Source: Escherichia coli (GTDB taxonomy: Bacteria > Pseudomonadota > Gammaproteobacteria > Enterobacterales > Enterobacteriaceae). Taken from it: 64,000 bases of DNA. The DNA lies in the NCBI RefSeq assembly GCF_003334785.1, contig NZ_QOWV01000006.1, one strand, 5' to 3'. A program made the position numbers. This document shows, in pieces, positions 3,001 through 6,000 of the stretch; the stretch's first letter is position 1; each line of letters starts with the position of its first letter.

Positions 3001-6000
3001 AGCACTTAGTTTTGATACATATCTGCAGGACAATGTTAAATATAGAGTAATAATTAATAATCTTTATGGTAGTGAAATTCGGATAAGAGGTATAAATAAA
3101 GATTTTATTGGAATGGATGTCACTTCTGTATTTCGCCCAGAAAAAATGACCAATTTGATCAGTATAAAAAACAGGTTGGTTATTCACTATTTAAGGACTA
3201 TATACTATGAACAAAATTATATACATCCTGTCGGGAGCATTTTTGCTGCGATTCAAAAAAATGAGAGTCTCCTAAAGTTTCCTTCGATAATATCAATGCT
3301 TAATATCAATCTTCTTTTTAATCCACTAAATCTTCCGGGAATGGGAAGTGGTGTGCTTGAAGATATTATGAGTATTCCAGATAGTTCACTTAGAAAACGT
3401 CTCGGGTATGAGGTTTTAAGCTTCTCGCTACAGGCACATTCATTGAGCCAGGAATGTATTGATAAGTTGGACATTTTTTTCGCTGACGATCTGTTTAAAT
3501 ATGAGTCAGTATGCATCGCCGCGATGGAACATTTAAAAAGTAAGGCAACGGCCCCTATACAAAACGGACCGTTGCCAGCATAAGAATTAATGGTGTGCCA
3601 GTTCGGCGTCGTCTTCGCTATCCAGAATGGCTTTATCGGTTTGCTTCAGCCACTGGCTGGTCAGCGTGCCAGCTGTCATCGAGCCACTAACGTTTAACGC
3701 CGTACGGCCCATGTCGATAAGCGGTTCAACGGAGATTAACAGCGCCACCAGGGTTACTGGCAGGCCCATCGCAGGCAGTACAATCAGTGCGGCGAAAGTT
3801 GCACCACCACCGACACCGGCAACGCCTGCGGAACTAACGGTAACAATACCGACCAGCGTCGCAATCCACATCGGGTCCAGCGGGTTAATGCCAACCGTAG
3901 GCGCAACCATCACCGCCAGCATTGCCGGATACAAACCGGCGCAGCCGTTCTGACCAATGGTTGCACCGAAAGAGGCGGCGAAACTGGCGATGGATTCAGG
4001 AACGCCCAGACGACGCGTTTGTGCTTCCACATTCAGTGGGATAGACGCAGCACTGGAACGGCTGGTAAAGGCAAACGTCAGCACAGGCCATACCTTACGG
4101 AAGTACTTCAGCGGACTCACGCCATTAATGCCCAGCAGAATGCCATGCACTGCAAACATAATCAGCAGACCGAGGTAGGACGCGACAACGAAACTTCCCA
4201 GTTTGATGATGTCTTGCAAGTTAGAACCTGCAACCACTTTGGTCATTAGAGCCAGAACGCCGTAAGGGGTCAACTGCATGACCAGGCGAACCAGTTTCAT
4301 CACCCAGCTTTGTAGGGTATCGATAGCGGCTAAGACGCGTTCACCTTTCGGCGCATCATCCTTCAGCAGTTTCAATGCAGCTACGCCGAGGAATGCGGCA
4401 AAAATTACCACGCTGATAATTGACGTCGGATTGGCTCCGGTAAGATCGGCAAACGGGTTTTTCGGGATAAAGGACAAGACCAGCTGCGGAACGCTCAGAT
4501 CAGAGACTTTACCAACATAGTTACTTTCAATGGCGTTCAGACGTGCAGTTTCTGCACCACCCTGAACCAGACCTTCAGCCGTCAAACCAAACAGGTTGGT
4601 GACCAGCACACCGACCAGCGCCGCAATCAGCGTGGTAAACAAAAGCGTACCGATGGTCAGAAAACTGATTTTGCCTAACTGAGATGCGTTATGCAGACGG
4701 GCAACCGCGCTCAGAATAGAGGCGAAGACTAACGGCATAACGATCATTTGCAGCAGTTGAACATAGCCGTTACCAACGATGTTAAACCACTGTACAGAAT
4801 CTTTAAGTACCTGGCTGTCAGAACCATAAATGGTATGCAGGGCAAGGCCAAAAACCACACCCATCACCAGACCCACCAGCACTTTTTTCGCCAGACTCCA
4901 CTGTTTATGGCGGGTCTGAGCCAGCGCAAACAGCAGTACAACGAACACCACGATGTTCGCAATTAATGGAAAGTTCATCCCCGTTCTCCTGATCTTATTA
5001 TTTCTATCACTGCGTAGCAGTCATAGTGTTGGCGCAAGATTAACAGAACTGTGAGCTGGCTCTTATATTCAAATGGAATTGCTTATTCCAGAAAGGTGAT
5101 TTTTGCCTTTTTAGTATTCAACCTGATGCTTAATAAGCCGATGAAACTGGATCTGCAAGGTATTGATCATTTGCGATGACCAACGAACAGCGCTGTTCTC
5201 GGGTAATGAATGGGGCATCCATACCGACCAGACAAATAATGCCATGCAGATAAAACGTTCCAGTTGGTTGCCCTTTTGGGGAACCAGGATAGGCAAGCGG
5301 AAACGCCAGCGGCATGGCCAGAGCAGGGGAACACCGGCGGGTGTCAGCATATCGGCAAGTATGTGGCTCAAATAACCCAGCACCATTCCTTGTAGCGCAT
5401 CAGCCGGAATGAACCAGCCTTCCGGAACCTTAAGGTAAAAGGTTGCCAGCAGCGCAAATACCGCCAGCAGACTGTGGGTAAAACCACGATGCCCAAAAGC
5501 GCGGGCGATCGGTTTTGATATCCATTTTAATCGCTGCCCAAGAAACGACTTTGGGTGATCGATGTCCGGTAACAAACACGTCAGGATTGCGGAAGGGACA
5601 ATATGCCACCAGTCACCCTGTGCCAGCACGGGCGTCAGCTCGGCATTTTTGGCAAATACCGCACAAGCAATAGAAAAGAGAAGGTGACCTTCCGCCGTCA
5701 TGATAAAACTCACTAAACTGTCGATACGTACAGTATAGGATTTTTATACAGTGCACGGAAGTGGTGACGGTGTAACTCTTTCTCTTAAATTGACGATTAA
5801 TCCGTCAGTTGAATGCAATTTCAGATAAAGAACCAGGGGCAGCGAGATCACTGCCCCTGGTCATTAACCGAGAAGGTCTTTTGCGGTGAGTTCTGTCAGC
5901 GATGAGAGTTTGACGTCTGCTAATACAAAACGTGGATCATTTTGCGCTTCTGGCGCAGGAACGACGATGGAACGCATGCGGGCTGCTTTAGAGGCGATCA

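Follow-up and report, generated by a model that had tools for sequence, protein, structure and literature searches.

The window analysed here, a 64,000-nucleotide stretch of Escherichia coli DNA (contig NZ_QOWV01000006.1 of assembly GCF_003334785.1), corresponds to about 1.752-1.816 Mb of the E. coli K-12 MG1655 chromosome in reverse complement. The element of interest, at positions 5716-5753, equivalent to 1,810,159-1,810,196 of MG1655, lies directly upstream of the gene ydjM, and we are highly confident that it is the SOS operator of K-12 ydjM, composed of two adjoining LexA sites from which the repressor would occlude the promoter. The promoter region of ydjM is identical (100%) to that of MG1655 (NC_000913.3), and the 1.6 kb around the operator is matched in 5,424 of 5,426 complete E. 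coli genomes. That ydjM has tandem LexA boxes is already known and has been in print since 2000. What is mildly new here is the comparative detail, namely the fixed 18-bp phasing of the two boxes, the invariant TATACT at their junction and the sporadic loss of the distal half-site, together with a model of the promoter. The gene upstream of ydjM, hxpB, ends with its stop codon at 5864 and is followed by a strong intrinsic terminator reading from 5862 to 5831; the ydjM promoter is therefore confined to 5702-5830. The features of the locus on which the argument is built are the following:

5111-5701, minus strand: coding sequence of ydjM (b1728), 196 amino acids, taken from the open reading frame and the K-12 annotation, with the ATG at 5701
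5709-5713, minus strand: GTGAG, resembling a Shine-Dalgarno sequence, 7 nt upstream of the ATG
5716-5735, minus strand: proximal LexA box, 20-mer TACTGTACGTATCGACAGTT in gene orientation, with an exact CTGT-N8-ACAG core at 5718-5733
5734-5753, minus strand: distal LexA box, 20-mer CACTGTATAAAAATCCTATA (read from 5753 to 5734), adjoining the proximal box and half-consensus
5831-5862, minus strand: hxpB intrinsic terminator, a GC-rich stem of 14 pairs and then a T-rich tail, directly after the hxpB stop

A gammaproteobacterial SOS box is defined as the 16-bp imperfect palindrome CTGT-N8-ACAG within a 20-mer of the form TACTGTATATATATACAGTA. The proximal box conforms to this definition exactly. 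As a preliminary description of this DNA had stated, the plus strand at 5718-5733, CTGTCGATACGTACAG, is a canonical CTGT-N8-ACAG, with both half-sites consensus and a GC-rich spacer. The distal box has the CTGT half only: its distal half, CACTGTAT, fits the consensus, with CTGT running from 5751 to 5748, whereas the half facing the proximal box reads CCTA where the consensus has ACAG (CCTATA vs ACAGTA). The same description had placed the two elements upstream of ydjM, rightly, as the gene is on the minus strand, and had them overlapping each other. The second element is real, but the two 16-bp cores do not overlap and stand 2 nt apart; only the conventional 20-mers have the dinucleotide TA (5734-5735) in common, and the box centres are 18 bp apart. 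Similarly, a distance of about 17 nt to the ydjM start is true of the proximal core (5718 vs 5701), whereas the element that ends at 5751 lies 50 nt from that start. Counted as 20-mers, the boxes span 14-52 nt upstream of the ATG, the proximal one ending 14 nt from it. A tandem LexA operator consists of two sites that adjoin or overlap at their ends, and this is the arrangement found at ydjM.

The bare motif CTGT-N8-ACAG has two matches in the 64 kb against 0.61 expected, and at least two were present in 15 of 100 shuffles, a count that is not significant on its own; matrix scoring was therefore used instead. A heterology-type matrix was built from 18 published SOS boxes (PMC3009722, Table 4). 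It differs from the original Lewis 1994 heterology matrix, and its values, referred to below as HI-like, are not numerically the published heterology index (HI). In a leave-one-out calculation, the 18 true boxes range from 0.6 to 12.6 on this scale. The heterology-index check that had been suggested for the ydjM boxes, run with this matrix, places both of them within the range of true sites: among the 127,962 20-mers on both strands of the window, the distal box ranks 1 (HI-like 9.75) and the proximal box ranks 2 (HI-like 10.22). Over 200 dinucleotide-preserving shuffles, sites scoring 10.3 or lower occurred at a mean of 0.3 per shuffle; two such sites were reached in 3% of shuffles, and a pair of them at 15-22 bp spacing in none (0/200).

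Seven sites in the window score 12.6 or lower, against about 1.9 expected from the shuffles. Third-best is TATTTTTTATGAAAACAGCA at 28571-28590 (10.85), which has one half-site and lies in AT-rich DNA, in the divergent intergenic region between an open reading frame of 277 amino acids (27634-28467, minus strand) and one of 792 amino acids (28800-31178, plus strand). We take these flanking genes to be ppsR and ppsA from the K-12 map, and the LexA-like site between them is probably due to chance. Another of the low-scoring sites, CACTGTATATCCTGCCGGTT at 7145-7164 (12.1), lies within the yniB coding region. The second match to CTGT-N8-ACAG, at 59907, was rejected as a LexA site, as it lies inside a long open reading frame and has an HI-like value of 21.5.

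The layout of the two boxes was followed through 80 orthologous ydjM loci of Enterobacteriaceae (84-99% protein identity), obtained from a scan of species-representative genomes, with the boxes searched in the 150 nt upstream of each ydjM. The two best LexA-like 20-mers lie exactly 18 bp apart in 78 of these 80 species, and the median HI-like values are 7.4 for the proximal and 10.3 for the distal box, against 21.2 for the third-best site. The proximal box has conserved CTG.A and ACAG on either side of a variable spacer, which is ACGTATCG in Escherichia, whereas Salmonella and most other enteric genera have ATGAATTG. A dimeric repressor site usually leaves such a footprint. The distal box, too, is conserved, imperfect as it is: the 8-mer (T/C)ACTGTAT, an exact LexA left half, keeps its fixed distance of 18 bp to the proximal box in 78 of the 80 species. 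The 18-bp tandem layout is shared by Erwinia amylovora (66% protein identity), and in one Pantoea sequence the distal half-site is 1 nt nearer to the proximal box. Citrobacter amalonaticus S646, Intestinirhabdus alba and a metagenomic relative (63% identity) have lost the distal CTGT, while all three retain the TATACTG junction as well as the proximal box. The more distant YdjM homologues, at 45-54% identity, belong to unrelated genomes or to very AT-rich ones; they gave no LexA-like site and are uninformative on the operator.

Within the species E. coli, 3,608 of 5,422 genomes carry an identical copy of a 62-nt stretch containing the operator, and the others reach at least 95% identity over it; about one-third of the genomes (1,814/5,422) differ at 1-3 positions. 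Two natural operator variants are of note. Strain NIPH17_0036 has a 7-bp deletion (AAATCCT) in the distal box, by which the distal CTGT is now 11 bp from the proximal one, and strain Z0117EC0032 carries a C-to-T change in the proximal spacer.

Published work bears on the locus at several points. In PMC4951493, tandem LexA sites at ydjM are given as experimentally reported in E. coli, with reference to Fernandez de Henestrosa et al. 2000, a paper that PMC3444427 also cites. The distal 20-mer CACTGTATAAAAATCCTATA is printed in PMC4576408 as a LexA site at -52 of b1728, and a review (PMC6590174) lists ydjM among the genes of the LexA regulon. The published boxes of E. coli K-12 ydjM are at the same locus and have the same sequence as those described here, with nothing that differs; their published HI of 9.0, in the weak part of the range (PMC11228462), is near the 9.8 and 10.2 obtained with our matrix. 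The proposal of tandem LexA operators directly upstream of ydjM is supported by the scoring, by conservation in more than 80 species and by this published work.

SOS control of ydjM, which had been predicted from the boxes, agrees with expression data already in print. The gene is induced 2.5-fold by azidothymidine (AZT), and wild type differs 8.6-fold from a strain with non-cleavable lexA3 (PMC11228462), so the comparison of damage induction between wild type and a lexA(Ind-) strain that had been put forward as a check has been published, and the ydjM operator passed it. The log2 induction of ydjM after damage is about 2.6 in a further study (PMC11002266). For Salmonella, two SOS boxes have been described at 14 and 32 nt from the ydjM ATG, with HI of 9.12 and 12.85, and the gene was induced 2.11-fold by nalidixic acid (PMC8072944).

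The boxes lie between the hxpB terminator and ydjM and span the invariant TATACT, and their position relative to a core promoter was approached by searching 84 orthologous promoters for sigma-70 elements under relaxed criteria, with the proximal box as the anchor. Two weak sigma-70 candidates were obtained from this search, with the following elements:

5732-5737, minus strand: putative -10 element TATACT at the junction of the boxes, present in 84 of 84 promoters
5755-5760, minus strand: putative weak -35 element TTCCGT, 17 bp upstream of TATACT, a 2/6 match to TTGACA
5771-5776, minus strand: alternative -35 element GTTACA, 17 bp upstream of the distal-box (T/C)ACTGT, within the block GAGTTACA(C/A)CGTCACC

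TATACT matches TATAAT at five of six positions and straddles the junction, taking in the four final bases of the distal 20-mer and the four initial bases of the proximal 20-mer. It is also kept in lineages that lack the distal CTGT half-site. The commonest hexamer 17 bp upstream of it is TTCCG(C/T), found in 66 of the 84 sequences. The alternative -35 element, GTTACA, is invariant in an alignment of 81 sequences and is present in Erwinia and Pantoea with a spacer of 17-18 bp; the combination GTTACA-17-TACTGT occurs in 53 of the 84 sequences, the K-12 version reading CACTGT. Of the two candidate -10 elements we lean toward TATACT, by a modest preference, because lineages without the distal TACTGT still have TATACT. 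With TATACT as the -10 element, the start site is inferred to be near 5725, the distal 20-mer would be at about -28 to -9 and the proximal 20-mer at about -10 to +10. The same model would explain why the right half of the distal box never drifts toward ACAG, since that change would destroy the -10 element.

The block in which GTTACA stands shows features of its own. On the minus strand at 5762-5781, AAAGAGTTACA(C/A)CGTCACC is conserved like the boxes themselves, in the 80 Enterobacteriaceae as well as in Erwinia and Pantoea. The sequence TTGTGAC stands before the block in most genera and produces an inverted repeat GTGAC-N13-GTCAC; K-12 is without this repeat. The block could be a -35 element or the site of another regulator.

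Repression by LexA followed by RecA-dependent derepression is established for the SOS regulon, and the layout at ydjM suggests how it may be realised there. In undamaged cells, two LexA dimers would occupy the pair of sites and cover about 38 bp, including the promoter spacer, the TATACT element at the junction and the predicted start near 5725, and this occupancy would exclude RNA polymerase. Upon DNA damage, RecA-stimulated self-cleavage of LexA would empty the sites, and transcription of ydjM would rise several-fold. The half-consensus distal site presumably depends on the dimer next to it; cooperativity of the two dimers is what we infer from this half-consensus site together with the fixed spacing. 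The tight repression that the preliminary description had foreseen is unsupported, as both boxes are weak (published HI 9.0; 9.8 and 10.2 here) and the measured induction is 2- to 9-fold; it is more likely that the tandem placement offsets two individually weak sites than that it yields unusually tight control. A more specific proposal, which we put forward tentatively and with rather more doubt than belief, is that the distal element is an obligatorily cooperative half-operator whose CCTATA is kept non-consensus because it helps to form TATACT, in which case the 18-bp phasing would be a third LexA-LexA geometry. If this is true, two LexA dimers and RNA polymerase share a single junction sequence. 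The comparative picture could be a starting point for a small study of the way in which weak tandem LexA sites achieve repression.

Several observations weigh against an operator of two LexA sites that covers the promoter. The induction of ydjM is modest, 2- to 9-fold in published data. The signal of a gfp fusion in Salmonella was not detectable (PMC8072944). In-vitro binding of LexA to both boxes rests on a secondary citation. The distal site is without a second half-site, and its conservation could partly reflect promoter function; judged by its loss in three lineages that keep the proximal box, it is also not indispensable. With regard to the promoter, a consensus scan of 5600-5900 found no sigma-70 site, the -35 element paired with TATACT is poor (2/6), and the promoter proposed from genomic systematic evolution of ligands by exponential enrichment (gSELEX) lies further upstream, from 5824 to 5796 on the minus strand.

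In another reading, the proximal box would be the sole LexA operator and the distal element would be conserved as promoter DNA, either as an AT-rich spacer or as a TACTGT -10 element with GTTACA as its -35, its resemblance to a LexA site being incidental. We regard this as unlikely. The distal element does have one consensus half-site only, in 53 of the 84 sequences GTTACA-17-TACTGT could plausibly act as a sigma-70 promoter, GTTACA itself being invariant, and the three lineages without the CTGT half retain the proximal box; RegPrecise, in addition, apparently holds one ydjM site, as PMC4576408 calls the distal site "novel" to RegPrecise. However, the distal 20-mer has the best LexA score in the 64 kb, and its (T/C)ACTGTAT, an exact LexA left half, keeps a constant 18 bp to the proximal box in 78 of 80 species; a secondary source (PMC4951493) gives the tandem sites as experimentally reported. 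Moreover, lineages without TACTGT keep both the gene and TATACT, which argues against TACTGT as an essential -10 element.

A different possibility is that transcription starts at an upstream promoter and that LexA, bound at about +35 to +75, blocks elongation. Such a promoter is at hand: Shimada et al. 2014 (PMC3946193), using gSELEX, assigned a constitutive RpoD promoter, CTGAAA-17-ATTAAT (5824 to 5796), to the yniC(hxpB)-ydjM spacer, and no strong sigma-70 consensus overlaps the boxes. The resolution of gSELEX is coarse, however, and the hexamers were chosen by sequence inspection. The proposed promoter adjoins the hxpB terminator, whose end at 5831 is directly beside the proposed -35 element, and its sequence is not conserved outside Escherichia, other genera having a different gene that ends there, whereas conservation across genera is seen from GTTACA down to the boxes. 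We consider a block to elongation improbable. As to a chance CTGT-N8-ACAG with no regulatory role, the count of the bare motif (2 vs 0.61 expected, with 15% of shuffles reaching 2) would permit it, but the two top matrix scores of the window adjoin each other as in 0 of 200 shuffles, the layout is conserved in more than 80 species and LexA-dependent induction is published. This explanation has a negligible probability and is refuted because the conservation and the expression data contradict a chance occurrence. Two adjoining LexA sites that cover the ydjM promoter are the explanation we retain, and the ydjM operator can serve as a positive control, in that real SOS operators are recognisable from raw sequence.

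A comparison with known LexA operators places ydjM among the tandem ones while setting it apart in geometry. The Salmonella enterica ydjM operator (PMC8072944) has the same geometry as that of E. coli, with its boxes 14 and 32 nt from the ATG; a proximal box of the Salmonella type, with the ATGAATTG spacer, scores better on our matrix than the Escherichia one with ACGTATCG (7.4 vs 10.2). The lexA gene likewise has two neighbouring LexA 20-mers immediately upstream of its coding sequence. Each of the lexA boxes, however, has two recognisable half-sites (HI-like 4.9 and 7.8), and their centres are separated by 21 bp, which is roughly two turns of the helix and puts them on the same face, whereas the ydjM boxes are 18 bp apart and one is half-consensus. 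The likeness to cea of ColE1 is in the fusion of two LexA sites at their ends, the weaker one with its degenerate half at the junction, as in ydjM. Double boxes of colicin genes have been described as a strong and a weak site that overlap at their ends (PMC4951493) and are reported to bind two LexA dimers (PMC2994835). In ColE1 cea, the cores overlap by 1 nt with centres 15 bp apart, while the ydjM cores are 2 nt apart; the cea boxes are a strong (HI-like 4.5) and a weak one (8.6), while both ydjM boxes are weak (10.2 and 9.8); and the cea pair belongs to a plasmid toxin gene and lies downstream of a consensus TTGACA -35 element. The ydjM operator is a tandem LexA operator that copies neither the lexA (21 bp) nor the ColE1 (15 bp) layout.

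The product of the controlled gene had been described as a small inner-membrane protein of unknown function. Its membrane location agrees with prediction, but the protein is not wholly uncharacterised: YdjM matches Pfam PF04307 over residues 1-158 (E=2.4e-35) and the NCBIfam equivalog NF008651, "metal-dependent hydrolase", over residues 1-195 with 374 bits (cut-off 216). On the strength of these matches, YdjM is predicted to be a metal-dependent hydrolase that is bound to the membrane. A sequence search of the PDB with YdjM found no relative. Deletion of ydjM gave a survival after TisB expression that was not significantly different from that of wild type (bioRxiv 10.1101/2024.02.22.581605); another bioRxiv mention of "YdjM" was set aside as a typo for YjdM and is irrelevant here. 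A membrane protein of the same PF04307 family is under LexA control in Staphylococcus aureus, in the SAOUHSC_02424 operon (PMC11442139). There, the YdjM-family gene has a single box of the Gram-positive type, CGAAAATATGTTCG, with no tandem, and is part of a three-gene operon with UDPGP and HlyIII genes. SOS control of the YdjM family thus recurs in distant bacteria. Among representative proteins, one of 7,287 amino acids contains 105 separate stretches that match YdjM residues 34-78 with 39% identity; this is a repeat protein of giant size or else an artefact of assembly or gene calling.

The start of ydjM is placed at the ATG by RefSeq. An in-frame GTG at 5713 was tried as an alternative start and rejected, as it is not conserved among orthologues; between the boxes and the invariant ATGACGGCGGAA or the ATG, the orthologues have insertions and deletions that are not multiples of 3. 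An Rfam scan of 5000-6000 found no RNA family. Around the operator, some E. coli strains, EEC_W5, T16R and YY76-1 among them, carry an insertion of about 1.07 kb in the equivalent of 5000-6600, annotated with a transposase of the IS903B family. Seven of the eight matches listed for the insertion-carrying strains have hxpB annotated together with an extra fragment of a HAD-IA hydrolase.

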